Shown here piece by piece: positions 3,340 through 53,888 of a DNA stretch of 64,000 bases. The stretch lies in the NCBI GenBank assembly GCA_036555485.1, contig DATBLG010000004.1, positions 2,090 through 66,089 on the forward strand, read 5' to 3'. The stretch comes from Gemmatimonadales bacterium. Lineage in GTDB: Bacteria; Gemmatimonadota; Gemmatimonadetes; Gemmatimonadales; GWC2-71-9. The position numbers were made by a program, and so were the translations under genes. Under the pieces are notes generated by a model, which ran no database searches, was not told the DNA's origin, and saw nothing but the letters and a program-made list of their open reading frames with translations. Each line of letters starts with the position of its first letter. Position 1 is the first letter of the stretch.

Positions 3340-3716
3340 GGGGCCGCCACCGTCACCGTCCGGACGACCGCCGGGGAGACGCCCGGACCGGTGACCCGCA
3401 CGGTGACTTTCTTGTAGTCGTTGGGTTGCCCGACCCCGCCGGTCCGCACGATGCTCGTCACGCGCGTGAACCCGGACAGCGTCGGGAACGTGGTTTCGGT
3501 CGCCGTATAGGCGGTATCGAGGGCGTCGTAGCGCGGATCGGCACGGATCTGCTCCACTCGATCGAGCGCCAGCTGGATCGCCGCATTCTGGTTCCCGCTC
3601 GTGGTGGCGATGTGCACCGTTTTCCCCGTCGTGCTCGCCAGCATCATCATGACCACGAGCAGAATGGTGAGGGCCAGGATGACCTCGATCAGGGTGAAGC
3701 CGCTTTTGTTGTTCAT
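3336..3716 (-). CDS. PilV-like minor pilin
   Basis: 126 aa; MNNKSG|FTLIEVILALTILLVVMMMLAS is a prepilin N-terminal motif. The size and operon position fit PilV. Confidence 0.7.
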   Translation of the reverse strand: MNNKSGFTLIEVILALTILLVVMMMLASTTGKTVHIATTSGNQNAAIQLALDRVEQIRADPRYDALDTAYTATETTFPTLSGFTRVTSIVRTGGVGQPNDYKKVTVRVTGPGVSPAVVRTVTVAAP

Positions 3717-3717
3717 G

Positions 3718-4350: not shown

Positions 4351-4486
4351 GCCAATCCTCCCTGGGTTCGCCGGCTTGCAAGTACAGGAACCGTGCCCAC
4401 CATCATTTCGTTGCGATATAAGCACTTACATAATTGCGTGCCAGCCTTGAACCGCGCAATTGTCTGCATTTATGCAAAAAGTTGCG

Positions 4487-30886: not shown

Positions 30887-30916
30887 CCCTTGTAGCAACT
30901 TGGAGTTCCGAATATA

Positions 30917-33450: not shown

Positions 33451-33567
33451 CTTTCTCGTTACCCGGACGCGCGCCGGCCGTCCTTGACGCGGTCCGGACC
33501 GAAGACCAGTTTCTTGAGTGATGGTGCCTGTACCCACCGTGGTGAGTTCCGCTCGAGGAGGTTCCGT

Positions 33568-36500: not shown

Positions 36501-36852
36501 CACGTCCCGCGGCGGCGTGTGGCTCCCGATGGTGTTCCGGGCCGACTTCAGTATCGCCCAGGAGGTGTTCACGGACGTCGGGGGGAAACGGAACAAGCTG
36601 AGTGTCCGGCTCGATATCCTGAATTTCGGCAATCTCCTGAACAAGAACTGGGGCCAGGGGAACCGCCTGGTGAACGCGCAGCCATTGATCGTCCCGACGG
36701 CCGCACAGGGCGGTCCGGCGGACGCACAGGGTCGCACGCAGTACCGGCTGCGCGCCATCGGGGGGCAGTTGATGACAAAGACCTTCGAAAAGACCGCGTT
36801 CTTGAACGACGTGTACAGACTGCAGCTGAGCCTGCGGTACGACTTCAACTGA
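33568..36852 (+). CDS. TonB-dependent receptor with an N-terminal carboxypeptidase-regulatory-like domain (Oar-like)
   Basis: Signal peptide MKRVLSVCPLIVMVLVVGTTALAA|QG, a CarboxypepD_reg-like stretch (TVTSESGTPIPGARVLA..SVPGMRVGGPYSVTATAIGFQ) and a long beta-barrel. GAGGAGG RBS. Confidence 0.8.
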   Translation: MKRVLSVCPLIVMVLVVGTTALAAQGVTTASISATVTSESGTPIPGARVLAVHGPSGTTYSAGSRADGRASVPGMRVGGPYSVTATAIGFQSQTRENIYLTLGVATNVAFALREVAVELAGLTVTAERDAIFSSNRTGAATSVGREALALPTISGRIEDFARLTPQYSGSGFGFSFAGQDNRLNNITVDGSYFNNSFGLAGQPGDRTGVAPISLDAIEQVQVNIAPYDVRQGNFVGAGVNTVTRSGTNEFSGSAYYQFRNESMVGSDAGASPFDPGLFKFHKTGVNLGGPIIRNKLFFFGSYESDGLASPGTTFRANTGGETVGGNITRVLATDLDQLSTYLSTNFGYDAGPYQGYEHETPATRFLARLDFNISERNKLSLRYNLLNSNTDVLLSNSSSLGFGTRRSNTTGLNYQNSNYLILENIRSVVGEWNSIVGSNKSNNLIIGYTHHDESRDSRGTFFPMVDILEGGSVYTTFGFEPFTPNNELRYSSFQLQNNFTIYGAKHDLTFGVSAERYESENVFFPGSQSAYVYNSLADFYTDANDYLANPNRTVSPITLRTFQLRWSNIPGQVKPIQPLEVFYTGAYAQDDWQATSNLKVVAGVRLDLPFFGNTGFANAQVDTLSFRDESGNTVRYSTSQLPGKNLLISPRIGFNWDVRGDRSTQVRGGSGIFTGRPAYVWVSNQIGENGVLTGFEQLTNTTARPFHPDPDHYKPASVTGNPASSYGLAFTDPNFKFPQLWRSNLAVDHKLPFGLAGTLELLYNRDVNGISYINANLSAPSAFFTGADARPRWTAGNRVNGIITSAIVLKNESEGDSYNVAASLERQFRGGLFAKAAYSYGRSRSTVDAGSIAFGSWNNNQHAGDPNNPGLGFAATNPGHRVFAALSYRREYFRFGATTVSLFWEGRTDGNASYTYSGDLNGDGGTSNDLLYIPRDASEMHFQQYNVGADTFTVAEQVAAWDAYIEQDDYLRPNRGKYTSRGGVWLPMVFRADFSIAQEVFTDVGGKRNKLSVRLDILNFGNLLNKNWGQGNRLVNAQPLIVPTAAQGGPADAQGRTQYRLRAIGGQLMTKTFEKTAFLNDVYRLQLSLRYDFN

Positions 36853-39286: not shown

Positions 39287-39309
39287 GGCCCCGGCAAGTT
39301 GCCGGGGCC
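39287..39309. terminator. Bidirectional intrinsic terminator
   Basis: GGCCCCGGC-AAGTT-GCCGGGGCC is flanked by AAAAA (39281-85) and TTTTT (39311-15). It lies between the convergent ctaA and lipoprotein genes. Confidence 0.8.
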
Positions 39310-39334: not shown

Positions 39335-40453
39335 CTACTGCACTTCGATCTTGATGTAGTAGTTCAGCGCCCCGCCCCCGTCGAAATCCTGGGTGACGAG
39401 CCAATAGGTGCCGGCAGGATAGAGGACGCCGCCAGCGACTTCAGGCTGCGAGGCGCCAGCGCCACCCAAACCGTCACCCGCGCACGGGTCGAACGTGGTG
39501 AATGTCACGTCGAAGCTCGCCAGCGCCGAATCGGAGCAAATGACCGCGTCGACATCTCCGCTGCCGCCGTCCCAGTTCACCTCGAACGAGATGGTGGTCG
39601 GTGCCGCAAGCGTGAACTTGAAGATCGAGCAGTTCCCGGAAGGACCGAACCCGAACCGGTCCTCGGCGCAGGTGAGCGGGGGATTCCCGGCCGTACCGGT
39701 CGCGACAAACACTGGGCTCACACCCACCGTTGCCGGGATCAAGGACGTGATGTCCGGTGCGGTCTGCCACTCGTTGTTCCCCGGGAACGGGTCCCCCGTC
39801 GGCGTGAAACTGCCCGAGGTGGCCAGGGTTACGACGAGCCCCGGCACGTAGGTCACCGCGATGTTCGTAATAGTGATCGGCCCCGGGTCGCCGAACGGTA
39901 CCAGCACCTGAATCTGGTCCACGGTCGCCGACAGGATTGGCGGGACTGCGCCACCCGCGAAAATGACGGTGCTGGTCGCGGGGTCGAACTTGAGCGAGGA
40001 GGTAGAGGAAATGGTCAGGGTCGAGCCGGGAATCGCCGAGTTGGTGGATAACGCACCCGCGAAGCTGGTCGGGAGCACGATGAGCTGCACCGTGTCAGGC
40101 TTGGCGCCCGCGGCCGAGGCCGTGATGCAACTGGCGTTCGCGCCCACGGCCGCGATAGTCGCGCGCTCGGCGAGCGGCGGCACCGGGTTGAAGGTCGGGT
40201 CCGCGGTCACGGTCGCCGTCGCGGCATCGCACGACGCGAACGTGATGTCACCCTCGAGCGGCGTGAACCGGCTGTCCACGATCCGCGCCACGACCTGGGC
40301 GGAGGAGCCCTGATCGAGCGTCAGAGACGAGAAATCGAGCACCACCGCAAACGGCGAGCCGACGCCTTCCGCGGTGGGATCGTTATGGCACGCCAGCGCA
40401 GTGCCCGCGAGCAGAGCCACAATGCCATAGAGTCCGGAGATCCGAGGTTTCAT
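39335..40453 (-). CDS. Secreted or lipoprotein with Ig-like repeats and a PPC-like C-terminal domain
   Basis: MKPRISGLYGIVALLAGTALAC|HNDP (lipobox-like), Big_2/IPT-like beta repeats and a C-terminal FEVNWDGGSGDVDAVICSD...GTYWLVTQDFDGGGALNYYIKIEV. Confidence 0.55.
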   Translation of the reverse strand: MKPRISGLYGIVALLAGTALACHNDPTAEGVGSPFAVVLDFSSLTLDQGSSAQVVARIVDSRFTPLEGDITFASCDAATATVTADPTFNPVPPLAERATIAAVGANASCITASAAGAKPDTVQLIVLPTSFAGALSTNSAIPGSTLTISSTSSLKFDPATSTVIFAGGAVPPILSATVDQIQVLVPFGDPGPITITNIAVTYVPGLVVTLATSGSFTPTGDPFPGNNEWQTAPDITSLIPATVGVSPVFVATGTAGNPPLTCAEDRFGFGPSGNCSIFKFTLAAPTTISFEVNWDGGSGDVDAVICSDSALASFDVTFTTFDPCAGDGLGGAGASQPEVAGGVLYPAGTYWLVTQDFDGGGALNYYIKIEVQ

Positions 40454-40502
40454 GCGGTCCTCACGTGAAGGGCTTCCAGTGATCGCTCCTGATTCTCAAG
40501 TC

Positions 40503-41882
40503 TTACAGCTCGAGATCCGCTAGTCCATCGGGACCGAGCATTTCCTGCCAGTCCGGCCGGCTCCGCTCCCGCACGTCGTTGGTGAAGATCAGCGTGTAGT
40601 TGCCGAACCGGGTCAAATCCATGAACACGTACTTCAAGTTCCGGTTGCGTGTGTACTTCCAGATCTCGTATGGCGATGCACCGGTCTGCACCCGGCGCTC
40701 CAGCACCTCGTCCGGCGCTCCGTACTTGATGAACACCCGCCCGCGGTCGGTACGCCATCCGGGAATCGCCGACGCTCCACCTTCGCGATACCGGCGGTTC
40801 GCTTCTTCGATAGCGGCGTAGAACCGCTCGCGCTCTTCGTTCCGCCTCGTCCCCGCGGTGGGGTCGCGCCGGGCCCAGAATTGCCGCAGCCACTTGCGCT
40901 TCCCTTCCAGCGACAGCGACGAGTACACCCCCTGCTCCTCGGCGCTCATCAGGTAGATGAGCGGCTGATACGCCTCGTCGAGCTCCGGCTCCGTGAGACT
41001 GGCCGGCCACTCTCCCGCGGCCGCCACGGCCGCGGCCTGTACCACCGTCTCGAACCCCGTCATCCCGAACATCGCCGACCGCACCACCTGCGAGTCCGGC
41101 CCCGTCGCGGTTACCTCGAACCGGTAGCGACCTGGGGGCAGTCCCGCGAGGTCGACGACCCCATTGGTGAACCCCCCACCCGAGCCGATCGCGGCCGGCG
41201 TCGGCGCCGTCGCCACCAGCTGCGTGCCCGACTCCGTCAGCACGCGGGCCGCCACCATCACGCTCTCCGCGTGCGTGGGGTACAGCTCCAAGTAGTACGC
41301 CAGCTTCGATGCTTGCGGCGTCAACACCGGCTCGCCGGACGTCACGAGGAACAGCGATCCTCGGCGCAGCTCTCCGGCCCGCGCGGCCGTATCCGCCGCC
41401 TCCGCGGCCCGCATGTCGCTCGCGACGAGCAGGTCCGACCCCGCCGGCGCGCGCGCGAACGCGTCCACTGTCGCTGCCGCCCGCGCGATCCTTCCACTGG
41501 CCGAATCGGTGACCGTCACCGACACGGCATACCGGCCTGGCCGCGCCGCGAACGTCACGTGCTCCGCGGTGGAGGCGCCGCGAGTGCGTAGCAGCTCGCC
41601 ACGCACCGGTGTGAGCCACGATTGCGACACCAACTCGAGCCCGGCCGAATCGCGCACCGAGATCGCGAACCGGAACGCCCCCCCGCCGCTGCCCGTCGTC
41701 CCCTGCGGGGTCACGAGCAACAACGGAATCCGGCAGAACACGTCCACCACGGTCTGCGAGGTCGCCGCGCGATACGATCGCACGACGCTCACGCTCACTG
41801 CGGCTTCGTCCGGCTGCGACTGGCCGGCACCCACGGCCGGAACGGCCGTGAGTGCCAGCGCAACGACCCCTGCGTACTTCAC
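40503..41882 (-). CDS. GWxTD domain-containing protein
   Basis: Signal peptide; C-terminal IPGWRTDRGRVFIKYGAPDEV...YEIWKY is the name-giving motif. The GTG start is 10 nt after the PorV-like stop. Confidence 0.75.
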   Translation of the reverse strand: MKYAGVVALALTAVPAVGAGQSQPDEAAVSVSVVRSYRAATSQTVVDVFCRIPLLLVTPQGTTGSGGGAFRFAISVRDSAGLELVSQSWLTPVRGELLRTRGASTAEHVTFAARPGRYAVSVTVTDSASGRIARAAATVDAFARAPAGSDLLVASDMRAAEAADTAARAGELRRGSLFLVTSGEPVLTPQASKLAYYLELYPTHAESVMVAARVLTESGTQLVATAPTPAAIGSGGGFTNGVVDLAGLPPGRYRFEVTATGPDSQVVRSAMFGMTGFETVVQAAAVAAAGEWPASLTEPELDEAYQPLIYLMSAEEQGVYSSLSLEGKRKWLRQFWARRDPTAGTRRNEERERFYAAIEEANRRYREGGASAIPGWRTDRGRVFIKYGAPDEVLERRVQTGASPYEIWKYTRNRNLKYVFMDLTRFGNYTLIFTNDVRERSRPDWQEMLGPDGLADLEL

Positions 41883-41892
41883 GTCAGATCGG

Positions 41893-43020
41893 CTACCAGC
41901 TCACACTGAAGCTGACGAAATTAGTGCCGCCCAGGGCGCCGAGATCGCGGTAGGCATAGTCGAACCCGACCCGCCAGTTGCCGCGCCCGTAGGCCAACCC
42001 ACCGCCCAGCGCCAGTCCATCCTTGGAGAAACTCGACGTGCTTTGCGTAGTCGCGAAGCCCGCGCCCGTGCCCGGATCGAGCTTATTGTCCGGCTGCAGC
42101 GTGTAGCTTCCACGCGCCGCCAGCGAGAAGCCCGAGTTTCCGACGTTGGTCAGCGCCCATTCCAGCCCGGCGCCCGCTCCCGGCTTCGTGTTCACCGGCT
42201 GCGTAAACTCCCCCAACACCGACACCCGGTTCATCCCCGAGCTGAGCAGGTCGAGTGCCACGCCCACGCGGAATTGCACCGGCAGTCCCCACGAGCTGGT
42301 CCGCAACCGCACGGGCTGCAGCTCCTGAGGAATGTCCACCGTCCCGAGGGGCGGTTGACGCGCGACGCCGGTTTCCAGCGCCGAGCCGTCGTGCCGCAGG
42401 TTCGTGCCCAGGTTCTGGATCACGAACGCGGCCCGGATCGGCCGTTCGCCGATCATCGCGTGGAAGTTCGTGCCGAAATCGAGCGCGAACCCCGTGGCTT
42501 TCGTCGACCCCAGCTGATCCGAAATCAGCTTCCCGGTGAACCCCGCCGAAAAGCGGTCCGAGAAGTTCTGGGCATAGGTCATCGACAGGAACGTTTCCGC
42601 CACCGAGTACGTCTCCCCCGTTCCATCCGGGTCCTCGAGGGTGTACACGGGCTGTTCACTGAACCCGAAGCTCCCGACCGCGAAGCCCACGGCGCGGGAG
42701 CCGCCGCCCATCGGCAGCGCGATGCCGACCCAGTTGTATCGAGTGCTCGACACATAGCTGTAGGACGACACCAGGATCCCCGGCCGGCTCATCTGCGCCA
42801 GCCCGGCGGGGTTGTAATACAACGCGGACACGTCGGTGGTCAGGGCCGCGTACGCCCCGCCCAACGCCGCCCCGCGGGCGCCGGCGCCCAGCAGCAGGAA
42901 CTCGCCGCTGGTGCTGCCGTAGCCCGTATTGTCCTGCGTGGTCTGGGCCCCGAGCGGCGCCACGGTCAGCGCCGCCAGGCCCATGAGCGTGCCGAGCACG
43001 CGAGTCAGTCGATGCGTCAT
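41893..43020 (-). CDS. PorV/PorQ-family outer-membrane beta-barrel (T9SS shuttle-like)
   Basis: Signal peptide ..APLGA|QTT; GEFLLLGAGARGAALGGAYAALTTDVSALYYNPAGLA is the family N-terminal signature. It ends in ..FSVSW. GAGGAG RBS. Confidence 0.75.
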   Translation of the reverse strand: MTHRLTRVLGTLMGLAALTVAPLGAQTTQDNTGYGSTSGEFLLLGAGARGAALGGAYAALTTDVSALYYNPAGLAQMSRPGILVSSYSYVSSTRYNWVGIALPMGGGSRAVGFAVGSFGFSEQPVYTLEDPDGTGETYSVAETFLSMTYAQNFSDRFSAGFTGKLISDQLGSTKATGFALDFGTNFHAMIGERPIRAAFVIQNLGTNLRHDGSALETGVARQPPLGTVDIPQELQPVRLRTSSWGLPVQFRVGVALDLLSSGMNRVSVLGEFTQPVNTKPGAGAGLEWALTNVGNSGFSLAARGSYTLQPDNKLDPGTGAGFATTQSTSSFSKDGLALGGGLAYGRGNWRVGFDYAYRDLGALGGTNFVSFSVSW

Positions 43021-43033
43021 GGTTATGGTCTCC

Positions 43034-46000
43034 TCACGGCGCGAAGTTGACGACGGTGAACCGACCCACTTTGGACTTCCCGTCCGGGGTTTCGACGTGA
43101 TAGAAGTACACGCCGCTCGCCACGAACTGGTTGTTCCGGTTGCGGACGTTCCACGTCAACGCACTGCCACCGGTTGGGTCGTTGTGCGTGAGCACGTTGA
43201 CCAGGATCCCACTCACCGAGTAAATGCGGACGATCGCCCGCGCCGGCAGGTTGACGAACTTCAGGATCTTGGTGTTGGCCGTGGCCTCGAGCGCATTGGT
43301 CACGTAGTACGGATCCGGCACCGTATGGACGCGCTCCAGATTCGCGGCGGTGACGCTGGTCGGATCGAACGTGGAACCGGTGTATTGGATCGTGGCTCGC
43401 AGCCCCGGCACCGCCGGCGGCCGGATGTCCGGCGTGAAGGCGAAATCACCGCCTGCCGCCGTGCCCGTGATCACGCCCGAGTAGAAGCGGGCAAACCACA
43501 CCGTCCCCGCCGCTGGGAGCGCGGCCATCTGCATCAGGAAGAAATGCCCGTTCAGATAGAAGATGAATCCGTTGCCGCCAGCCACGTAGGCGGGATCTGC
43601 CGTTCCTGCATAGGTGGCGGACCGTCCAGCCACGATGGGTGACAGCGTCGCACGGTTCATGAACACGGCCGAGCTCTGCGCCGCCCCACCGCAGCGGGGC
43701 AGGTAGGTATGCACCGGAGCAACGCAGAAGATGTCCGACCAGGTGAGCTTCGAGTTGTTCCCGTCCTGGGTCGTCGCGGCGTTCGTGCCGCCCAGGATAA
43801 ACGACGAGTCGTTCAGGATTCCCCAGGAAGCGCGGAGCTTGGTGCTGAACGGCACCGGCACCTTGTGGGTGAGATCGACCACTGAGTCGATGGCGCCGTT
43901 CGCCCCCCACACCACCTTGATGTCCGCGGCGCGGAACACCGTGGAGGTGATCGCCTCTATGTCCCGTCCCGGCACGTTGGGCGTGTTCAGATAGGACGCC
44001 GGGTGGAAGATAGTATCCACGCCGGGGAGCGCGCCCGCGGTGCGGCTCAGATCGGACAGCACGCAGGCCCCGTTCGAGGGGACGCAGCCCGTCCCATTTG
44101 GATCGGGGGTGTTTTCGTTGGCCGTCCCGGCCCACCAGCGCGGTCCGTTGACAGCGGAATTGGCCGGCGCGGCATTGGCGTCACCGCGACCCTGCCCGGT
44201 GGTGTGCCATGTCCCGGACAGGCTGACCGTGGTGCTCCCGAACAACGCGTACGAGGCGTCGCCGCCGAAACGGGCCGACTGCGTCTGGTCGATGTTGGTC
44301 GCCGGGAAGCTCACCGTCGCCTCGGTCAGGCCGTCAAACGCGTCCTGGTGCACCGGGAACACCAGCGTATCCACCGCCGGCCCGGAGCCCTGGGCGCGAG
44401 CATAGTAGATCGGATCGATGCCGCCGATCAACACCGAGCCCGGCAGGATCGAATCGATCGTCAGGCTCACCTGACCGCTCGCGCCCAAGAGCTCAGGCAG
44501 GAAGTTGGCGAGCCCAAGCTCCAAACCGTCAGCCGGCGGGAACGGGCCGGAGAAGATGCCCGTCGCGGCGTCGATGCTCGGTTGCGTACCCGTGAGCACC
44601 GAGCCGTCGGCGCCCAGCAGCTGGACGGAGCTCAGTGTGCCGCTCACCGTCTGCCCGGAGGAGGTCTGCGGCGCGACGGTCTTGGGGATGCGCGCCGACT
44701 CGATCGCCGACGGCCCCGACTTGAGCGAATTCACGTCGAACGCCGTGACCGCGTAAAAGTAGTTGAAATTGTTGCGCACGCTGCGATCGACGAACGAGAA
44801 CGACACGCCACTGTTGGTCAGCGCCGGGTTCCCGCTCGCCCCGCCCGTGACGGCGGTGTCGGCCGACAGTACCAGCACGCTCGAATCAGCGAGCGCCACA
44901 CGGCCGCCGATGGGCACCTGGATCACACTGCCCACGAGATCGTGCTCGATACCCCCAACTGACGGGAAGTTGTCGGGGCAGTCCTGCTGGATACCCAGCT
45001 CCGGCGCGCACTGGCTGATGCCGTTGCCGTCTTCATCCACCTGGTAGGCGAAGGAACCCGTGAAGTCGACGAGCGAGGTCCCGGCGTAGTCGAACTGGGC
45101 AATGAGCCGCAGGTCGCCGGTGGTGCGGCCGCGATAGATGCGGTAACCCTCGACGTCGTACTGCCGGAAGTTCGGATCGTACAGCACCGACGTCGGATCC
45201 GACGCGACCGCGAAGAACGGGTCGCCGCCACCGGGCTGCACCGTTTCCGACGCGGACTTCTGCCACACGATCGTCACCTGATTGTCGCCCGGGATCAGGA
45301 AGAAGGGCGGCGCATCCGGCGAGAACGGCAGCAGGAACTTGTTGTCGTACACGGCCTGGGCCACCAGCGCCTTGTTAAGCAGTGAGCGCGGCAGGGTGAC
45401 CACCTCGTCCTGCGTGATGGCGAAGTTGGTGTCGCGATCCTGCTGCGTCACCCACCCCATCGCCCGCTCGATCGGCCGCACTTTGGTCGTGTCGAGCCCC
45501 AGCTCGCTCGAGTTGGCGGGGATATCCGGCTTGAAGTCGCCGCCGATCTGCGAGACGACCACCGCCGTGGGGGCGGCGAAGATGTAGGCCACCACGATGC
45601 TCTGCGACTGGCCCGGGGCGAGCGTCAGCGGTCCGGACGACTGGAAGAACCGCGCGTCGGCGAAGTTCTGGGCCAGGAAGCAGAACTTCCGGGTCAGCTG
45701 CTGCCCCTGGAAGTTGCAGGGGTTGTCGCCGGCGGCCGGATCGGAGGTGCCCGAGATGTAGCGGAACAGCTGGATGACGCCCACCGGATCGGGGTAGCCC
45801 GTCCCGGCGTTCAGGGTGTTGGAGAAGATCGTGAGTCCGACGGGGTTGCCGAGATTATCGAGGGGGGATTTCAGGTACTTCACCCCGATAAAGCCCGGCG
45901 ACGGAACGAACGGCGCCCCGAAGATCTCGGCCGGGAACAACCACGACGGCTCGAGGAAGTCGGACTTGTAGGTGATGCCCATGCTGAACGGCAGCACCGC

Positions 46001-46873
46001 CGTCGCGTAGTTGTGGCTCGCGTCACCGACGTCCATGTCGGCGAAGAACGCGGCGTAGGTGTTTTCGAGGGTATACCCGCCGTCGGGGATGTCGAGCCCG
46101 AAGCGGGCTTCGTTGCGGTCTTGGAAGTTGGCGCCGATCGCGGCGATCTCACCGGCGATCGCGGGGTCCAGACCGGCGTACACGGCCGCGTTCCGCGCGG
46201 TCACGTTATAGAACGTGTACACGAAATAGACGATGTCTTCGTTCCCGGTCGGGAAGTTCCAGGCCATGCCGCGCTCTTCGACCAGGATGCCCATCGGATG
46301 GGTCCGGCCCGAGAGGAAGGCGGGGTTGCCTTCCCAGGTGCGCACCCACAGGTCCTGCTGGGAGATGAAATCCCGGTTCAAGAGCACCGAGCTGTAGAGC
46401 GACGAATCCCGCACCTTCGCCCCATTGGGCCAGGCGGCCGCGTCGCCCAGATCGAGTGAGTTGAACACCAGCGTCACCGGGTCGCCCTGGGCCTGCGTAC
46501 CGCGCGGGTCCATGAAGTACGCGCCGACGGTGTCGCCCGCCCACGCGAACCCGGCGGTCGCCGGAATCGTCCCGGCCAGCTGCAGCCCGGAGTTGAAGAC
46601 GTACTGATCGGGGCTGCCCTTGGGCCAGAAGCCGCCGCCCACGACCGGTGAGTTGGTCGGGTCGACGCACACTTCCCCGATGTTGTTGATGCCGCAGAAG
46701 ACGCGGTTCACGTTCATGACGCCGAACGTGAGCGCGAACAGGTTGAGACCGGACCGCTTGGCCGGACGGCCGGGCGCCGGCTTGGCCGACGCCGGTGCCA
46801 CCTCGACCAGGGCGACGAGCATCGCTGTCGCCACGGCGGCCCGGACTGCGCGAGTAAACCAGGTTGAACGCAT
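43034..46873 (-). CDS. 1279-aa secreted protein with a T9SS C-terminal sorting domain (FlgD-Ig-like type A CTD); body of unknown function
   Basis: Signal peptide ..APASA|KP. The C-terminus VPDPYYVTN..KILKFVNLPARAIVRIYSVSGILVNVLTHND..WNVRNRNNQFVASGVYFYHVETPDGKSKVGRFTVVN fits the CTD pattern. There is an internal FN3-like YDVEGYRIYRGR. Confidence 0.7.
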   Translation of the reverse strand: MRSTWFTRAVRAAVATAMLVALVEVAPASAKPAPGRPAKRSGLNLFALTFGVMNVNRVFCGINNIGEVCVDPTNSPVVGGGFWPKGSPDQYVFNSGLQLAGTIPATAGFAWAGDTVGAYFMDPRGTQAQGDPVTLVFNSLDLGDAAAWPNGAKVRDSSLYSSVLLNRDFISQQDLWVRTWEGNPAFLSGRTHPMGILVEERGMAWNFPTGNEDIVYFVYTFYNVTARNAAVYAGLDPAIAGEIAAIGANFQDRNEARFGLDIPDGGYTLENTYAAFFADMDVGDASHNYATAVLPFSMGITYKSDFLEPSWLFPAEIFGAPFVPSPGFIGVKYLKSPLDNLGNPVGLTIFSNTLNAGTGYPDPVGVIQLFRYISGTSDPAAGDNPCNFQGQQLTRKFCFLAQNFADARFFQSSGPLTLAPGQSQSIVVAYIFAAPTAVVVSQIGGDFKPDIPANSSELGLDTTKVRPIERAMGWVTQQDRDTNFAITQDEVVTLPRSLLNKALVAQAVYDNKFLLPFSPDAPPFFLIPGDNQVTIVWQKSASETVQPGGGDPFFAVASDPTSVLYDPNFRQYDVEGYRIYRGRTTGDLRLIAQFDYAGTSLVDFTGSFAYQVDEDGNGISQCAPELGIQQDCPDNFPSVGGIEHDLVGSVIQVPIGGRVALADSSVLVLSADTAVTGGASGNPALTNSGVSFSFVDRSVRNNFNYFYAVTAFDVNSLKSGPSAIESARIPKTVAPQTSSGQTVSGTLSSVQLLGADGSVLTGTQPSIDAATGIFSGPFPPADGLELGLANFLPELLGASGQVSLTIDSILPGSVLIGGIDPIYYARAQGSGPAVDTLVFPVHQDAFDGLTEATVSFPATNIDQTQSARFGGDASYALFGSTTVSLSGTWHTTGQGRGDANAAPANSAVNGPRWWAGTANENTPDPNGTGCVPSNGACVLSDLSRTAGALPGVDTIFHPASYLNTPNVPGRDIEAITSTVFRAADIKVVWGANGAIDSVVDLTHKVPVPFSTKLRASWGILNDSSFILGGTNAATTQDGNNSKLTWSDIFCVAPVHTYLPRCGGAAQSSAVFMNRATLSPIVAGRSATYAGTADPAYVAGGNGFIFYLNGHFFLMQMAALPAAGTVWFARFYSGVITGTAAGGDFAFTPDIRPPAVPGLRATIQYTGSTFDPTSVTAANLERVHTVPDPYYVTNALEATANTKILKFVNLPARAIVRIYSVSGILVNVLTHNDPTGGSALTWNVRNRNNQFVASGVYFYHVETPDGKSKVGRFTVVNFAP

Positions 46874-46902
46874 ATCGTTTCCCTCTCGGGTCTAGAGCCG
46901 GA

Positions 46903-46932
46903 GGAGCGGCGCCCGTCGCCGGGCGCCGCTCC
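46903..46932 (-). other. Intercistronic GC hairpin between the TonB-dependent transporter and the T9SS cargo gene
   Basis: GGAGCGGCGCCC-GTCGCC-GGGCGCCGCTCC (12-bp stem) with no U-tract. The role (attenuator or processing/stability element) is unknown. Confidence 0.5.
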
Positions 46933-46946
46933 GCATTACACGGGCG

Positions 46947-49900
46947 TCAGAAGTTCAACTCGAAGCCGACGCGGATGTGGCGCGGCTGGCCGTACATGGT
47001 CTGGACGCCGTTGAACAGGTCGTAGAAGGCGTTCAACGCCGTCGTCTGTTCGGCCAGCGTATACACGCCGTCGCCATCGCCGAACCGCGCCTCGGTGCGG
47101 CGCAACATCACGCAATTCACCGGGCCGGCATCGGTGGCCGTCCACGTGGTGCAGGACGGGCGCAGGTCGACCGAGCCGTTGGCGAGGAGATAGCCTTCCT
47201 CGTCGGCCTCGTTTGCCAGGTCCGCGAATTCGGAGCTGAGGGTGTTGGTGCGATGCAGCGCGTTTACGATGTCGTCCGTTTCCACGAACAACTGCGCCAC
47301 ATTCTTGAAGTTCAGGGCGTTGCGCAGGTCGGCGAACGCCGTGATATCGGCGCGACCCACCCGCAGGCCCTTGTTGAACCGCAGGTCGAAGAACTTGGTC
47401 CACGGCATCGTGGACGAATTGATCGGCTCCACCTGCGTGGAGATGAGGCCGAACCCGAGGCGCGGCGCCGTATTGCCCTGGCCGGCGTTACGCAGCCGGG
47501 TGTACGGCAGCCCGCTGACCGCCCGGAACGTCGCGAACACGCCGACGTTGCGGAGAATCGCGCCCATGGTCGTGCCTTGCTGCCAGTCACCGGGGACGCT
47601 GAGCGAGGCGGTGCCCACGAAATTGTGGGTCCGGTTGTCGTCCGTCGGGAGCGGCTGCTCCGGCGGCGGCAGACGATCGCCGGTCACCTGCGAGATCTGG
47701 CGACCCGACGTGTTGATGTAGGCGAACGGATCCGACCCGGTGCTGCGGGCCACCTGGAACGTGTAACCGCCGGACACGCTCATCCAGTTGCCGACCCGCT
47801 TGTCGAGCTTCAGGTCGATGCCGCGGGCGTAGCCGAAGTCGGCGGTCGTGAGCACGTTGACGTTCACTACGTCACCAACCACGGCCGGATCAGCGTACCC
47901 TTTGATGCGGTACGTCAGGTCCGAAACCTTGTCCTTGTTGTACGCCGAGATGTCGAGCACCAAGTCCGGACCAAACGCGTGCCGGACGCCGAACTCGAAC
48001 TGCACCGTCTTCCCGAACCCGACGTCGCGTCCAAACGCGTCGTTGGTGTTCGTGAACGACAGATCGTTGTTCGAGCCCGAAAGCAAGGTGAGGAAGTCGG
48101 GCGTCTGCACCTGGTGCGCGTACGACATACGGAAGTCGGTCCGTTCCGTGATCGGGAACGACACCCGCAGCCGCGGCGAGAGCGTGCTGTGCGCCTCGGC
48201 GGGCGTGAAGACGGCCGCCACCGACGCCGCATAGGCGGCATCGTTCGTCGCCGCTGCGCTCTGCCACGCCGGATTCGTGAAGATGCGGCCCGGGGTGTTG
48301 GAGAACAACGCCTTCGAGTCCATGTAGTCGTAGCGGATACCAAGCTCGAGCACGACGTCGCCCAGGTCCAGCCGGTCCGCGCCCCACACCGCGTACGTCA
48401 CCGGGTTCACGACGAACGCGTCCATGGCGAACTGGGTGATGAAGCTCGACGCCCAGAAGTTGATGTCGGTCTTCTTGTATTCGCCGCCGAAATTGAAGCG
48501 GTGGAACCGGTTCGCCTGCCAGTCCGCCTGGGCGAACACCCGATAGCGGTTCTCGGCGTTGAGCTGCGAGCGCGCCGGATTGAACCCTTGCGTGGTCCAG
48601 CCGCCGCGCAGCATCCCGTAGGGATTCATGCGGTACGGCTGGGCGTTGCTCAGGTCGGTGCGGTCCAACAGCGGAGTCCGCAGACCGGTGTTGGTGCGGA
48701 TGTTCCGAATGATCTGGTCCGTAATCGGGAACGGCATCGGCCCGAACCCGGCGAAATTGAGCGTCGAGAACTCGATCCCCATGGTGGGATCGCGCGTGCC
48801 GACTTCGGACGCTGGATCGAGCGGCCCGACGATACCACGCTCCTGGCCCCAGCTCAGGTTCACGTTCAGCGCGAGCCCGGACTCGGCTCCCTTGAAGAAC
48901 GAATGGTTCAGGTTGAGCACCGCGAGGCGCTGCCAGTTGTGGAAGCCGCGGAACAGCGCCGGGTCGCCGATCAACGTGCCCGGCCAGGTGCGGCCCTGCT
49001 GCCCGCTCGCAATCCCGGTGAGCCCGATGCTCGACCCGCTCCCGTAGGAGTAGGCCAGCTTGCCGGACGTCTGGATCGAGCTGTTCCAGTTCATCGGGCG
49101 GCGGCGGCCCTGGCACTCGAAGCCGAAGTTGGCCGACGCGTCGCACTCCCCGGCGAACTGCACGAACCGGGGAATCTCCACCGACTGCGTGCCGCTACCC
49201 GACGGCACCGACACCGTGGTGTCGGTCCCGCCCATCAGATAGGAGGGCACCTTCTCCGCTCCGAAGCCGAGGAATGCCGCCTCCTGCCCCTGCACCACGG
49301 CCGACACGAAGAAGCGCAGGTTGCTCACGATCGGGATCGGTCCGCCGAGCGCGCCCTCGAAGCGGTTGTACCCGACGCTGATCGCGTCGCCGAACGGCTC
49401 GTCGCTCGTGTAGTTCAAGCTGCCCGCCAGCCGCTCACCACCAGTCCGTGTGGTGTAGGAGATGATGCCCGACTGCGCGTCGCCGAAATCAACGCCGATC
49501 GCGCCCGTCGTCACCGACGCCTCTTCCACCGCGTTGGTGCCGACCGTAATCGACTGACTGCCGAGACTGGCGCTGCGCACCGGTGCACCGTCGATGTAGA
49601 CGTTCGCCTCACCCGGCCGGCCGCCGCGGATCACGAGACCGTTGCCCGAACCGGACTCGACCACGCCTGGCTGTACCGAGATCATGTTGCGCACGTCGTC
49701 GATCGGCAGGTTGTTGATGTCCGACCCCGCGATGATCGATTTCGACGTCACCTGGTCGCGCGGCACGATCGGGTTCGAGGCGGTCACGCTGATGGTGCCG
49801 ACCTGAATGGCCGACGGCGTCAGTTTCACGTTCACCGTGATCGTCTGACCGCCGAACACGCGCGTGTCACGCTGCTCCGACGGCGCATAGCCGATGAACT

Positions 49901-50162
49901 GCGCCCGGATCGTATAGCTGCCGACCGGCACGTTATTGATGAAGAAGTAGCCCCGGTCGTTCGTGACCGCGCCAAACGAGGTCCCGACGACGAACACCTG
50001 GGCATTCGCAAGCGGCACACCCGCTTGATCCGTCACCGTACCCTCGAGTTTCCCCGCGGTTTGCTGCGCCGCTGCCGGCGCGACCGCCAGGAACCCGGCG
50101 ATCACGAGCATGACGCTCAGCGCGAGGAAGCGACCGAAGGCGCTTCGCACACGATAAGTCAT
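46947..50162 (-). CDS. TonB-dependent transporter with a CarboxypepD_reg domain (Oar/SusC-like)
   Basis: Signal peptide ..APAAA|QQ, KLEGTVTDQAGVPLANAQVFVVGTSFGAVTNDRGYFFINNVPVGSYTIRAQFIGY, plug motifs (LPIDDVRNMISVQPGV, GLVIRGGRPGEANVYIDGAPV) and a terminal ..VGFELNF. ATG at 50162 with a GGGAGGAA RBS. Confidence 0.8.
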   Translation of the reverse strand: MTYRVRSAFGRFLALSVMLVIAGFLAVAPAAAQQTAGKLEGTVTDQAGVPLANAQVFVVGTSFGAVTNDRGYFFINNVPVGSYTIRAQFIGYAPSEQRDTRVFGGQTITVNVKLTPSAIQVGTISVTASNPIVPRDQVTSKSIIAGSDINNLPIDDVRNMISVQPGVVESGSGNGLVIRGGRPGEANVYIDGAPVRSASLGSQSITVGTNAVEEASVTTGAIGVDFGDAQSGIISYTTRTGGERLAGSLNYTSDEPFGDAISVGYNRFEGALGGPIPIVSNLRFFVSAVVQGQEAAFLGFGAEKVPSYLMGGTDTTVSVPSGSGTQSVEIPRFVQFAGECDASANFGFECQGRRRPMNWNSSIQTSGKLAYSYGSGSSIGLTGIASGQQGRTWPGTLIGDPALFRGFHNWQRLAVLNLNHSFFKGAESGLALNVNLSWGQERGIVGPLDPASEVGTRDPTMGIEFSTLNFAGFGPMPFPITDQIIRNIRTNTGLRTPLLDRTDLSNAQPYRMNPYGMLRGGWTTQGFNPARSQLNAENRYRVFAQADWQANRFHRFNFGGEYKKTDINFWASSFITQFAMDAFVVNPVTYAVWGADRLDLGDVVLELGIRYDYMDSKALFSNTPGRIFTNPAWQSAAATNDAAYAASVAAVFTPAEAHSTLSPRLRVSFPITERTDFRMSYAHQVQTPDFLTLLSGSNNDLSFTNTNDAFGRDVGFGKTVQFEFGVRHAFGPDLVLDISAYNKDKVSDLTYRIKGYADPAVVGDVVNVNVLTTADFGYARGIDLKLDKRVGNWMSVSGGYTFQVARSTGSDPFAYINTSGRQISQVTGDRLPPPEQPLPTDDNRTHNFVGTASLSVPGDWQQGTTMGAILRNVGVFATFRAVSGLPYTRLRNAGQGNTAPRLGFGLISTQVEPINSSTMPWTKFFDLRFNKGLRVGRADITAFADLRNALNFKNVAQLFVETDDIVNALHRTNTLSSEFADLANEADEEGYLLANGSVDLRPSCTTWTATDAGPVNCVMLRRTEARFGDGDGVYTLAEQTTALNAFYDLFNGVQTMYGQPRHIRVGFELNF

Positions 50163-50476
50163 GGACAGTTCCTCCCAAGACGAGAATGCGAGTGGACTAC
50201 CGGACAAAAAACAGTTGGCGACACGTCACCTCCCTCCGGGTGAGTGTTTCCGTGGAGACGGCTGCGGAACTTCATTAAACCAATACTGCCGCGCGTTCCG
50301 AGGGACTGTCAAGGAAGCAGAAATCGCCCATGTCCCCCAGAGTGGACATCAATTCGCCGGGCGATAATGCGCCCCAAACAGTCACCCCGCAAGGCCCCCC
50401 GATTCCGGTGCGCCGCTGAACCAGTCGCGGATTCCGGTCGCCGTCTTCCTCTACTATAAGGAGGATTCGATTCGGC

Positions 50477-51655
50477 TCACACGAGGAACAGGTCCCGTTG
50501 CGGGGCCGCCGGCGTCACCTCCGGGCCCGATTCCGCCAGATACACGTTGATCTCACTGCGCACGCCGTAACGCCCTGGGAAGTACACCCCCGGCTCCACG
50601 GAAAACCCGATGCCGGGTTGCAGTTGCCGGGTGTCAGCGGTTTCGAAATTGTCGAGATGGGGACCGGAGCCGTGCAGGTCCCGGTCGATCGAGTGGCCGG
50701 TGCGATGCACGAAGAACTCACCGTACCCCGCCGCCTGAATCACGCCGCGCGCGGCATCGTCGAGCTGCGCTCCGGTGACCGCCCGAGCGCCCCACTGCTC
50801 GACCAGCCGCGCCACCGCCGCGTCGCGCGCCTCCCGGACCACGTTCCACACGCGTGTCACTTCCCCCGGGGGCTCGGCGCCAGCAAACGCCATCCATGTC
50901 TGATCGGCGAACACGGTCCCGGGCGCCGGGCCCGCCCACAGATCGAGCAGCAACACCTCGTTCGGTGCGAGACGGCGATCCGCCCCTTCACCCGGCTCGT
51001 AATGGGGATTGGCGGCATTCTCCGCGAACGCGGCAAGCGGCGGATGGTCGGTGACCAGGCCGGCGCGCACGAACGCCTCGAGCACGCGACGCTGTACCGT
51101 GGTCTCACGCACTTCCTCGCCCCGGGCGAGCGCGCCGCCGGCCCAGGTCAGCGCCTCGCGCGCGATCTGGGCCAGCGCTTCCGCCGCGCGGCGGTGTCCC
51201 TCGAGCTCGCCCGAGGACCAGCGCGCCGCGAAGCGGGTCACGAGCGGCGCCGACGACACCACCCGCGCCCCGAACGACTCCAGCAGCTGGACCACGCCAT
51301 GCGGCACGCGATCGAGGTAGGGAACGCCATCCAGTGGCGACACCTCCATTGCGAGGGTCTTGCCGGCGACCAGCGGCTCGAGCAGTGCATGCAGCTCGCG
51401 CCATGCCGAGTAGGGGTGGACCGTGCCGGGGAAGCCGTCGAACGCCTGCAGCTCGATCCGGTGCGCCACGGCCACTGGCGGGCCAGACCGCGGCAGCACC
51501 ACGAAGTAGCGCCGGGTGCTCATTCCATGCACGTCGAGCACCCGCCTGGCGATCGGATTCACGCCGCGGAAGTCGAACAACAGCCAGGCGTCGGCGCCCA
51601 ACTCCTCAAGGGTCGCCGTGAGCGCGGCGAAATCGAAACCGGACAGGGGGGGCAT
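50477..51655 (-). CDS. M24-family metallopeptidase (Xaa-Pro aminopeptidase-like)
   Basis: HRTGHSID, GFSVEPGVY and SEINV motifs. The ATG at 51655 shares 1 nt with the upstream stop (TGATG). Confidence 0.8.
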   Translation of the reverse strand: MPPLSGFDFAALTATLEELGADAWLLFDFRGVNPIARRVLDVHGMSTRRYFVVLPRSGPPVAVAHRIELQAFDGFPGTVHPYSAWRELHALLEPLVAGKTLAMEVSPLDGVPYLDRVPHGVVQLLESFGARVVSSAPLVTRFAARWSSGELEGHRRAAEALAQIAREALTWAGGALARGEEVRETTVQRRVLEAFVRAGLVTDHPPLAAFAENAANPHYEPGEGADRRLAPNEVLLLDLWAGPAPGTVFADQTWMAFAGAEPPGEVTRVWNVVREARDAAVARLVEQWGARAVTGAQLDDAARGVIQAAGYGEFFVHRTGHSIDRDLHGSGPHLDNFETADTRQLQPGIGFSVEPGVYFPGRYGVRSEINVYLAESGPEVTPAAPQRDLFLV

Positions 51656-52260
51656 CAGTGGTGCCTCGGATCGGGTGTAGCCGCGCGCCACTCGCAGCGG
51701 TCGACGCCGCCGCTGCGGCACGCGGTGTGGAGCATCGCGCTCTCGAAGCCCATCAGGAGGCGCAGCAGCTCGGCGAACGCCGCGGAGTACAGGACGCAGG
51801 CCGCGCCATCGGGGGTCGCGCGGATCGCGAGCGCATCGCGCACGCGGGCCACCGGCAGCCGTCCTTCGCGGCCCAGCTCACCGCCCAGCACCACCCGGGC
51901 GGCGCGCCGGGCGGCGGCGTACCCGAGACTGTTGGGCGCCAGCCAGGCCAAGAGCCGCGCGCCGATGAACGCCCGACGCACCGCGCGGCGCGCCGCGCGC
52001 CGACCCGCATCGGCGAACACGAGGTCGGCGTCCGGCCGCCGGCCCACCAGTCGCAACAACGCTTCGACGTGCGCCGGTGCCACGCGCGCGTCGCGGCGCA
52101 CCAGCGCCTCGTATTCGGCGAGCTGCGTCTGCACGGTCGCCGAGAGGCCGAAGCGCTTGATGAGAAGCTCGTCGGCGAACTCGCCCAACCCGTCCTCGAC
52201 GGGGGTGTCGAGATTGCGGATGGCCTCGAGCACCGCGAGCGGTAGGATGCTGTGAATCAC
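51655..52260 (-). CDS. Hypothetical protein with a V4R-like C-terminus
   Basis: 201-aa ORF with GC3-rich codon usage. The C-terminal ...HTACRSGGVDRCEW resembles the C-x(7)-C motif of V4R domains. This is a weak assignment. Confidence 0.4.
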   Translation of the reverse strand: MIHSILPLAVLEAIRNLDTPVEDGLGEFADELLIKRFGLSATVQTQLAEYEALVRRDARVAPAHVEALLRLVGRRPDADLVFADAGRRAARRAVRRAFIGARLLAWLAPNSLGYAAARRAARVVLGGELGREGRLPVARVRDALAIRATPDGAACVLYSAAFAELLRLLMGFESAMLHTACRSGGVDRCEWRAATPDPRHH

Positions 52261-52387: not shown

Positions 52388-52984
52388 ATGGCGCACACTC
52401 CCGCTCCAGCTCCGAGCCCGCCCCCCCCTCCAGCCGACGAAAAACGGTCCAGTTTCGAACGCGAAGCGCTGGTGCACCTCGACGCCATGTACCGCGTCGC
52501 CCTGCGACTCACCGCGAATCCCGCCGACGCCGAAGATCTGGTGCAGGACGCGATGCTGCGGGCCTACCGCTCCTGGGATCGCTTCACCCTCGGCACCAAC
52601 GCGAAGGGGTGGCTGCTCACCATCCTCCGCAACCTCTTCATCAATGAGTACCGCCGCCGCCGCCGGCACCCCGAAACGGTCGATCTGGACACAATCGAGC
52701 CGTTCGCGGTGTTTGAGAAAGTGCAGGAGGACCCCCAGGGGGCCTTCTTCGACCGCATCGTAGACGCGGAAGTGCTGCGCGCGGTGGACGCGCTCCCCGA
52801 GGTATTCCGGGAAGCGGTGCAGCTGTCGGACGTGGAAGGGCTGTCCTACGAAGAAATCGCCAAGGTGCTCGACGTCCCCGTCGGGACGGTGAAATCGCGG
52901 CTCTACCGGGGACGCCACATGCTGCAAACCAAGCTGTACGAGTACGCCGTGAGCATGGGATACATCAAAGGACGCACGACATGA
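52388..52984 (+). CDS. ECF (group 4) RNA polymerase sigma factor
   Basis: Region 2 DAEDLVQDAMLRAYRSWDRF..WLLTILRNLFINEYRRR. Region 4 VQLSDVEGLSYEEIAKVLDVPVGTVKSRLYRGR. Confidence 0.9.
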   Translation: MAHTPAPAPSPPPPPADEKRSSFEREALVHLDAMYRVALRLTANPADAEDLVQDAMLRAYRSWDRFTLGTNAKGWLLTILRNLFINEYRRRRRHPETVDLDTIEPFAVFEKVQEDPQGAFFDRIVDAEVLRAVDALPEVFREAVQLSDVEGLSYEEIAKVLDVPVGTVKSRLYRGRHMLQTKLYEYAVSMGYIKGRTT

Positions 52985-53205
52985 ATTGCCGGGAGTGCGT
53001 GGAACACCTCTACGAATACCTGGATCGGGAGATGACCCCGGACCTGGAGCGGGAGATCCGCGCCCACCTGGCCCACTGCCCGCCGTGCGGCGAGCACCAC
53101 GACTTCGAGGCGCTGTTCCTCAAGTTCCTCCACGCCCGCTGTACCACGCAGGGGGCGCCGCCGGTCTTGCGGCGCCGCATCCTCGAGCAGCTGTTCGACG
53201 AGTGA
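52981..53205 (+). CDS. Zinc-binding anti-sigma factor (ZAS, RsrA-like, soluble)
   Basis: 74 aa; C-x2-C..H-x3-C-x2-C (MNCRECVEH...AHLAHCPPCGEHH). ATGA overlap with the sigma gene. Confidence 0.8.
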   Translation: MNCRECVEHLYEYLDREMTPDLEREIRAHLAHCPPCGEHHDFEALFLKFLHARCTTQGAPPVLRRRILEQLFDE

Positions 53206-53888
53206 GGTGGCTCACCCCGGGCGGTGTAGCCGCCGCCCTCATGGTGGGGGGAGCCGTGTGGTGGGGACTCGGGTGGGGCGGCCTGGCGCCTCTGTTCGCT
53301 TTCCTTGTTACTGGCAGCCTCCTGACGCGCCTCGCCGAAGGCGGAGCCGGCCCCCGGACCGCGCGGCAGGTGTTGGCGAACGGTGCGGTGGCAGCGTGTG
53401 CCGCCCTCCTCGGTTCCTGGCCGGCAGCCGCCGGGGCGATCGCCGCGGCCACCGCGGACACCTGGGCCACAGAAATCGGATCCTTCTCCCCCCGTCCCCC
53501 TCGGCTCATCACCACCGGAGCGCGAGTGCCCCGCGGGCGGTCAGGGGGTATGACCCTGCTCGGCACGCTCGGCGGGATCGGGGGCGCGTTCGTCATCGCC
53601 ACGATATCGGCACTCGTGGCCCCCCGACTGCGGGGGCCCGGCGTATGGGTTGTGGGCGCGGCCGGGTGCGTCGGGATGCTGATCGACTCGCTGGCTGGCG
53701 CGACGTTGCAGGCAGCCTACCGGTGCCCCGCGCCAGGGTGCGGCGCGGTCACGGAGCGGCCCGGGCAGTGCCACGGGACAGTCGAGCTGGAACGAGGAGT
53801 GCGATGGCTGAACAACGACGGCGTGAATCTGGTGGGATCCCTGAGCGGCGCATTCGCGGCGGCCGTGGGATCCTCGCTCCCGTCCTAG
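53202..53888 (+). CDS. DUF92/TMEM19-family integral membrane protein (family of plant VTE6 phytyl-phosphate kinase)
   Basis: Multi-TM and Gly-rich (LLGTLGGIGGAFV), with RWLNNDGVNLVGSLSGA near the C-terminus. GTG at 53202 overlaps the anti-sigma stop (GTGA). Confidence 0.65.
   Translation: MRWLTPGGVAAALMVGGAVWWGLGWGGLAPLFAFLVTGSLLTRLAEGGAGPRTARQVLANGAVAACAALLGSWPAAAGAIAAATADTWATEIGSFSPRPPRLITTGARVPRGRSGGMTLLGTLGGIGGAFVIATISALVAPRLRGPGVWVVGAAGCVGMLIDSLAGATLQAAYRCPAPGCGAVTERPGQCHGTVELERGVRWLNNDGVNLVGSLSGAFAAAVGSSLPS

Follow-up and report, generated by a model that had tools for sequence, protein, structure and literature searches.

The 64,000-nucleotide stretch analysed here, called the window throughout (Gemmatimonadales bacterium, contig DATBLG010000004.1, positions 2,090 to 66,089), carries at 39335-50162 five genes which form a real and conserved unit, with a gene order beyond chance. 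From the first gene on they encode a TonB-dependent transporter (TBDT), a secreted protein of an uncharacterised family that we call BIG, an outer-membrane beta-barrel of the PorV/PorQ family, a GWxTD protein and a lipoprotein. We see about an even chance that these genes constitute a conserved outer-membrane module which depends on a type IX secretion system (T9SS) and does not stand alone: the SprA translocon would export BIG, the C-terminal domain (CTD) of BIG would tether it to a cognate barrel, and the tethered protein would work together with the TBDT. This reading builds on direct observations of gene content, synteny and linkage to sprA, and of the subtype specificity and conservation of the CTD; from these we infer that the CTD is retained and that BIG, barrel and TBDT form a physical complex, and any statement on what is transported, and in which direction, is likewise inference.

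The unit was traced with a GWxTD alignment in a scan that represented each species by a single genome and gave 80 loci, 49 of them from Gemmatimonadota, and each gene was scored only where the contig extends far enough. Within this phylum the barrel gene lies directly upstream of the GWxTD gene in 41 of 42 loci, BIG is in place in 31 of 32, the TBDT in 26 of 26, and a relative of the fifth gene directly follows the GWxTD gene in 41 of 45. The wider neighbourhood is syntenic as well and includes genes for an extracytoplasmic function (ECF) sigma factor, an M24 peptidase, COX15, an amino-acid permease, a second large outer-membrane protein (OMP) and LptF/G. In the preliminary description of this DNA, a lack of synteny in other genomes was named as a refutation; the loci clearly show the opposite, and the core is found in other phyla too. 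The trio of TBDT, CTD protein and barrel recurs in this order in Fermentibacteria (loci L061, L072 and L089), in a metagenome-assembled genome (MAG) of Zixibacteria (L084), in a MAG labelled as Bacteroidota (L060) and in other MAGs (L052, L085, L088); in L087 it is rearranged. In Fermentibacteria the TBDT gene is separated from the BIG-like gene by exbB, exbD and tonB, and downstream of the barrel gene there are two GWxTD genes. Judged from this distribution the core trio is probably older than the phylum Gemmatimonadota. One locus (L009) has neither barrel nor BIG upstream of its GWxTD gene, and sprA still lies 6.6 kb downstream there.

In the window sprA is encoded about 8 kb downstream of the operon on the same strand. 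Its product scores 502 bits on TIGR04189 (cut-off 200) and matches the Pfam family SprA_N; the true start is probably below about position 30917, since lptF overlaps the open reading frame (ORF) as listed. In 14 related Gemmatimonadota loci sprA likewise lies on the strand of the operon, at a distance of about 4-10 kb downstream. A search of the window for T9SS genes other than sprA and those of the operon found none. Because sprA is nearby and this linkage is conserved in synteny, the T9SS is the most likely route by which BIG is exported from the cell. The five genes had been taken for a self-contained system, a view which the conserved linkage to sprA contradicts.

BIG consists of beta-rich modules and is conserved over its full length at 54-89% identity across Gemmatimonadales (more than 100 relatives among the matches listed, nearly all of them without a name). 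In all, 1183 relatives were scored; one orthologue with 67% identity bears the NCBI label 'T9SS type A sorting domain-containing protein'. The CTD of BIG resembles those of T9SS type A cargo. On TIGR04183 the last ~90 residues reach 21.0 bits, just below the cut-off of 23 (the counterpart in L060 reaches 23.8 bits), whereas the PorZ model NF052228 matches BIG at E 6e-7, with 28.2 bits against a cut-off of 260 and over model positions 689-757, that is the CTD, only. The domain has the start motif PNP/PDPYY. No other part of BIG is as well conserved as the CTD, with a column conservation of 0.85 for residues 1195-1279 and 0.93 for the final 40 residues, compared with 0.68 in the remainder of the protein. 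In other phyla the body of the protein is reduced to ~750-880 residues and has diverged so far that it is no longer recognisable, but the C-terminal ~100 residues, starting with (V)PNPY/PDPYY, can be matched with E values of 1e-16 to 1e-22. The BIG CTD is present at E <1e-10 in 887 cluster representatives. In a search for PorZ proteins of Bacteroidota with the last 115 residues as query, the best 150 matches were saturated by BIG orthologues and fragments. Such conservation suggests that the CTD is retained uncleaved. Three proteins of 1292-2295 residues (P0394, P0437, P0497) match the CTD query in 9-13 separate stretches each and appear to carry tandem CTD-like immunoglobulin (Ig) domains. 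L040 has a second full-length BIG paralogue (9875-13759) downstream of its operon, and no second barrel accompanies it.

The CTD is also specific for its gene neighbourhood. A profile of the BIG CTD gives 32-56 bits on the in-cluster, usually barrel-adjacent, proteins of several phyla; the other CTD cargo encoded in these loci reach 14-23 bits or are not matched. The best NCBIfam match of the barrel-adjacent CTDs is the PorZ CTD in six of six clusters, while neighbouring cargo CTDs match the generic Por_Secre_tail model instead. Because the profile prefers in-cluster proteins over other cargo, the barrel looks dedicated to the CTD protein next to it, which agrees with the preliminary description. 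There a barrel for one cargo was regarded as unusual; however, cognate barrels for single CTD proteins are a known T9SS principle, exemplified by PorU-PorV, PorZ-PorQ and type B cargo with PorP/SprF (PMC10202324).

The barrel itself belongs to the PorV/PorQ family with 128.4 bits on NF033709 (cut-off 90), but it remains far below the equivalog cut-offs for PorV (NF033710, 42.2 against 250 bits), PorQ (NF033711, 68.0 against 220) and PorV2 (NF052325, 62.7 against 325), and orthologues from other phyla are likewise under these three cut-offs. The PorQ score exceeds the PorV score in 7 of 8 barrels, always below the cut-off. F. johnsoniae PorV (6H3I, E 3.7e-4) is the sole significant relative of the barrel in the PDB, and one PorV-family gene was seen across the window and the flanks of the loci.

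The TBDT starts with a signal peptide, followed by a CarboxypepD_reg domain (67.9 bits in Pfam), a Plug domain (28.5 bits, cut-off 23.9) and a barrel which ends in FELNF, with a C-terminal aromatic residue. The Pfam barrel model is not matched by the TBDT of the window, whereas orthologues from the clusters do carry TonB_dep_Rec_b-barrel. On the SusC model TIGR04056 it reaches 34.3 bits against a cut-off of 368. The model PF25183 for Oar-type barrels does not match the TBDT but matches the second large OMP of the window (33484-36852), which has no detectable similarity to the TBDT. When compared with the TBDT of the window, those from the clusters of other phyla reach 141-202 bits, and TBDTs from the same phylum outside the cluster just 31-82 bits. 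Because of this difference we regard the TBDT as a co-inherited member of the cluster and not as a chance neighbour. The exbB-exbD-tonB genes inside the orthologous cluster of Fermentibacteria give indirect support to a dependence of the TBDT on TonB-ExbBD.

For the body of BIG, an AlphaFold2 (AF2) model of residues 31-1200 was of moderate quality (mean pLDDT, the predicted local distance difference test score, 69.9), with a confident stretch at model residues ~710-1140, corresponding to residues ~740-1170 of the protein. Foldseek returned weak beta-supersandwich matches only (N-domains of GH15, GH94 and GH116, and YidC P1; TM <=0.2), which are a hint of glycan binding and no more. No relative was found among the PDB sequences with the single sequence or with a profile. 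The invariant cysteines of BIG fall into five close pairs, which suggests disulfides of a surface protein rather than a catalytic cysteine. Two identities were considered for BIG and rejected. PorU was dismissed since Pfam, NCBIfam and the PDB (single sequence and profile) gave no match to C25/Peptidase_C25 or NF033707, Foldseek found no gingipain or PorU fold, and the cysteines are paired as described. A true PorZ was dismissed since the CTD alone matches the PorZ model and Foldseek found no propeller.

The mechanism we propose would run as follows. All five products carry predicted Sec signals, supplemented by a lipobox in the fifth, and the TBDT and the PorV/PorQ-like barrel would insert into the outer membrane. 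BIG would cross this membrane via the SprA translocon encoded downstream; its PorZ-type CTD, left uncleaved, would dock on the cognate barrel, whose gene follows at a distance of 13 nt, and BIG would be tethered at the surface as PorZ is by PorQ and PorU is by PorV. The tethered protein, built of beta-sandwich modules and probably a binder of glycans or other polymers, would work with the TonB-energised transporter, and the GWxTD protein (periplasmic or located elsewhere in the envelope) and the variable lipoprotein would be lineage-specific accessories.

Among the known systems, the porU-porV pair of Bacteroidota comprises a protein of ~1100-1300 residues with a retained CTD, followed by a barrel of ~380 residues. 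P. gingivalis PorU has 128 kDa and PorV 43 kDa (PMC5445135). In this organism PorZ and PorU keep their CTDs, which are bound by PorQ and PorV, respectively (PMC10202324). In PorU-PorV and in SprB/SprF-type pairs with a PorP-like barrel, the barrel shields the CTD from cleavage (PMC10202324, PMC9143113). We liken BIG and its barrel to PorZ-PorQ and PorU-PorV because of the conservation of the CTD, its specificity and the pattern of PorZ and PorQ scores. As in PorZ-PorQ, a surface protein exported by the T9SS would have its CTD held by a cognate PorV/PorQ-family barrel, provided that the CTD is retained here as its conservation suggests. Unlike PorZ, BIG has a body without a double beta-propeller, and all equivalog scores lie far under the cut-offs. 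Moreover, the genes for BIG and barrel adjoin each other and are grouped with TBDT and GWxTD genes, whereas P. gingivalis has porZ (PG1604) and porQ (PG0602) at different places in its genome (PMC5445135). With PorU-PorV, and with SprB/SprF-type proteins and their PorP-like barrel, the operon shares the position of a gene for a large CTD protein immediately before that of the cognate barrel. In contrast to PorU, BIG has no C25 protease domain, and in contrast to SprB/SprF its CTD is type A and PorZ-like instead of type B, with a barrel of the PorV/PorQ and not the PorP/SprF family.

A further point of comparison is PorF (PG0534), a TonB-dependent-receptor-like barrel which is a known T9SS component without an assigned role or partners (PMC5445135, PMC12704123). 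By its phenotype the porF mutant groups with porQ and porZ mutants, with beige colonies and a loss of ~90% of gingipain activity (PMC12704123; PMC5445135). Compared by literature description only, the TBDT resembles PorF as an outer-membrane barrel of the TonB-dependent-receptor type tied to type IX secretion; PorF differs in that it is not known to be encoded beside porZ or porQ. SusC/SusD loci also group a TBDT that has an N-terminal CarboxypepD_reg domain with surface-exposed accessories, including a variable lipoprotein. However, a SusD-like gene is lacking here, the TBDT is partnered by a T9SS-displayed protein that has a barrel of its own, and the operon keeps a fixed genomic position throughout the phylum whereas SusC/SusD loci are variable.

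A core role in the envelope or in a late step of type IX secretion is favoured because the operon is conserved near-universally at a fixed locus of housekeeping type linked to sprA, and because PorF, a T9SS component that is itself TonB-dependent-receptor-like, has a mutant resembling those of porQ and porZ (PMC12704123, PMC5445135). Within the T9SS-dependent module we therefore prefer a late-stage T9SS or surface-glycan function, as a counterpart of the PorF/PorZ/PorQ group of P. gingivalis; dedicated uptake of one essential substrate is nearly as likely. Several points weigh against the module as a whole. The retention of the CTD is deduced from conservation only, and functional equivalence would hold by analogy, as the body of BIG is unrelated to the propellers of PorZ or the C25 protease of PorU. 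The barrel is far under the PorQ, PorV and PorV2 equivalog cut-offs and could be the only, general PorV of the organism. In addition, the model of BIG is moderate (pTM, the predicted template modelling score, 0.47) with weak fold matches, and in many phyla the GWxTD gene lies apart from the trio. A more far-reaching proposal, which we consider unlikely, is that the trio represents an ancient, vertically inherited module of phyla related to the FCB group (Fibrobacterota, Chlorobiota and Bacteroidota) and the ancestral, still clustered form of PorF, PorZ and PorQ, which are dispersed in Bacteroidota. The TBDT would then couple the energy of TonB-ExbBD to a late T9SS step such as supply or exchange of the surface glycan or lipid for cargo attachment, or cargo release, and GWxTD would be an envelope partner not recognised before.

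The strongest competitor of the T9SS-dependent module, though on balance a rather doubtful one, is a machine for nutrient capture without any role in secretion, in which BIG displayed by the T9SS and the lipoprotein bind a substrate and hand it to the TBDT for import, similar to SusCD. The SusC-like N-terminus of the TBDT with CarboxypepD_reg and Plug agrees with this, as do the ExbBD-TonB genes inside the Fermentibacteria cluster, the weak fold matches of BIG to beta-supersandwich domains of carbohydrate enzymes, and the varying length of the fifth lipoprotein, a property of surface glycan-binding proteins. However, typical uptake loci are variable and multi-copy, whereas this operon is nearly universal at a fixed housekeeping locus and its BIG is highly conserved across the order; neither a SusD-like gene nor a degradative enzyme or a sensor is conserved in the cluster, and the linkage to sprA is not required for nutrient capture. 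Considerably less probable is the idea that BIG and the barrel are the porU-porV pair of the phylum, with BIG as a non-homologous or extremely divergent PorU sortase, the barrel as general PorV, and TBDT and GWxTD as mere neighbours. Gene order, sizes and the CTD do mirror porU-porV of Bacteroidota, sprA is nearby, and the PorV-family gene is the single one seen in the window and flanks. On the other side stand the failure of the searches for Peptidase_C25, NF033707, related PDB sequences and a gingipain or PorU fold, the paired cysteines, which suggest disulfides, a CTD closer to PorZ than to PorU, a barrel closer to PorQ than to PorV in 7 of 8 cases, and a TBDT whose co-conservation across phyla is not that of a chance neighbour.

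The Oar-type TonB-dependent barrel of Myxococcus reportedly secretes or releases PopC, and the preliminary description had raised the possibility that the operon is an export or anchoring module of this kind, with the TBDT itself secreting or releasing BIG or another protein. The CarboxypepD_reg type of the TBDT and its tight co-conservation with BIG would fit. But the T9SS-type CTD of BIG and the linkage to a complete SprA translocon offer BIG the standard export route; furthermore, the Oar-type profile fits the dissimilar OMP at 33484-36852 and not the TBDT. Export via the TBDT is thus the least supported reading, and we regard it as very improbable.

Part of this picture is already known, namely that retained CTDs have cognate barrels and that the T9SS includes a TBDT-like component. 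What appears to be undescribed so far is the conserved operon together with the BIG family, its connection with GWxTD and the embedded ExbBD-TonB genes. In this respect the preliminary description was right to speak of an undescribed system: the literature search yielded no publication about GWxTD or a cluster of this kind, and none that deals specifically with type IX secretion in Gemmatimonadota. T9SS biology rests almost wholly on a few Bacteroidota, and roles for PorF and GWxTD are lacking. Here one particular clade of TBDTs has stayed together across several phyla with a cognate barrel and a protein whose CTD is specialised and probably retained, sometimes with their own ExbBD-TonB, and beside sprA in Gemmatimonadota. 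This grouping is testable in terms of which proteins bind each other and which mutants should have a phenotype in common. It offers a handle on the anchoring of surface proteins without sortase cleavage, it may throw light on the late steps of type IX secretion, which are poorly understood, and it provides an annotation for a large 'hypothetical' protein family of ~1300 residues. If the trio were indeed the ancestral module, PorF and GWxTD would for the first time be placed in a mechanistic context.

Features of the operon and the linked translocon gene in the window.
Feature	Position	Strand	Characteristics
TonB-dependent transporter (TBDT), 1071 aa	46947-50162	-	CarboxypepD_reg and Plug models
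BIG (secreted, uncharacterised family), 1279 aa	43034-46873	-	no Pfam family
BIG CTD, ~residues 1180-1279, start VPDPYY	43034-43336	-	T9SS-type, PorZ-like subtype
PorV/PorQ-family outer-membrane beta-barrel, 375 aa, ends in SVSW	41893-43020	-	NF033709
GWxTD protein, 459 aa	40503-41882	-	TIGR04514, PF20094
Lipoprotein, 372 aa, lineage-variable family	39335-40453	-	lipobox in sequence
Upstream region, 314 nt	50163-50476	-	TTGACA box, conserved leader of ~85 nt, two GGAGG motifs
Bidirectional intrinsic terminator closing the operon	39287-39309		hairpin and T-runs on both strands
sprA/sov, T9SS outer-membrane translocon	24689-31756 (ORF as listed)	-	TIGR04189, SprA_N

The layout of the operon was confirmed as first described, including the five minus-strand ORFs with intergenic gaps of 73, 13, 10 and 49 nt, the length of the upstream region and the strong bidirectional terminator, whose 10-pair stem has 9 G-C pairs and is accompanied by T-runs on both strands. 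G+C at third codon positions is 0.83-0.89 in all five ORFs, typical of real genes in a window with 66-70% GC. Upstream the neighbour is an M24 peptidase gene (50477-51721), 314 nt from the ATG of the TBDT. This ATG, at 50162, has a GGAGG 8 nt upstream and is taken as the start, while the ORF list runs the frame on to a TTG at 50207. The ~85-nt leader before the TBDT is conserved at the nucleotide level across Gemmatimonadales, and so is a TTGAC(G/A) box further upstream; a small hairpin with a T-run lies within the upstream region at 50230-50217. The first GGAGG of the leader is followed by a GTG, which in most relatives shares the reading frame of the TBDT; in the window this GTG is displaced by 1 nt and would open an upstream ORF of 21 codons ending in ATGA. 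A comparison of the upstream region with Rfam for riboswitches or other RNA elements gave nothing at the gathering threshold nor at E <=1, RNAalifold found no supported consensus structure for the leader (-1.35 kcal/mol) although its sequence is conserved, and a scan for sigma-70 promoters returned zero sites.

Of the family assignments made at first, those to CarboxypepD_reg TBDTs, PorV/PorQ barrels and GWxTD proteins are above the respective cut-offs. The GWxTD protein, in which the motif reads PGWRTDRG, reaches 91.8 bits on TIGR04514 (cut-off 28) and 48 bits on PF20094 (cut-off 26.9). It has a signal peptide, two sandwiches resembling Ig or fibronectin type III domains and a C-terminal GWxTD domain of helices and four strands (AF2, mean pLDDT 76). 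Foldseek gave generic Ig-type matches only for the protein (RbmA, transglutaminase) and no informative match for the GWxTD domain itself. GWxTD genes are solitary among housekeeping genes in loci from Rhodothermales, Chitinophagales, WOR-3, Stahlbacteria, Latescibacterota and Acidobacteriota, where their neighbours (FtsY, RimO/MiaB-type, PurN, PurH, PriA) provide no functional clue, and GWxTD is only loosely attached to the trio. A second GWxTD gene follows the lipoprotein gene in L022 (11796-12494), L023 (10819-12192) and L050 (1731-2225).

The lipoprotein call for the fifth product agrees with the lipobox LAGTALA-C visible in its sequence, but the PPC and Ig domains once assigned to it are not supported: the PPC match is non-significant (E 0.2), profiles detected no Ig-like domain, and Pfam and NCBIfam gave no significant family. 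Relatives of the fifth gene encode 136-750 residues and are variable in architecture. SusD was absent from the Pfam and NCBIfam matches of all five proteins.

In the surroundings of the operon, sprA is divergent from a plus-strand lptF-lptG pair (30917-33450), which is followed by the gene for the Oar-type barrel mentioned above (33484-36852; 1122 residues, CarboxypepD_reg/OMP_b-brl_4). The same set of sprA, lptF, lptG and Oar-type barrel genes flanks the operon in the related genomes L002 and L003. An M28 peptidase gene (23778-24908) follows sprA. On the other side of the operon, the stretch 52388-53888 holds an ECF sigma factor (52388-52984) and then a 300-residue ORF with DUF92 at residues 71-289 only; related loci have a distinct gene for a zf-HC2 anti-sigma protein (74-89 residues) ahead of DUF92, and the ORF of the window may be a fusion or an over-extended ORF call.

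Further away the window carries genes of the type IV pilus or type II secretion system type, which encode a PilB-like ATPase (21383-23095), a PilT-like ATPase (20236-21369) and a PilC-like platform protein (19016-20221). A PilS-like histidine kinase (17234-18895), a sigma-54 response regulator (4487-6175), a HAMP kinase (5833-6963) and prepilin-type proteins (2173-4425) are encoded as well. The region 8147-15825 shows a strong AT skew (+0.19 to +0.27) at a GC content of 0.69-0.70. Its four minus-strand ORFs of 517-586 residues have no Pfam family or significant NCBIfam family, with one weak NCBIfam match below the cut-off and one weak TPR match among them. They are interleaved with a GT2 glycosyltransferase gene (12696-13439) and a methyltransferase gene (13436-14257), and may encode integral membrane proteins of a glycan pathway.

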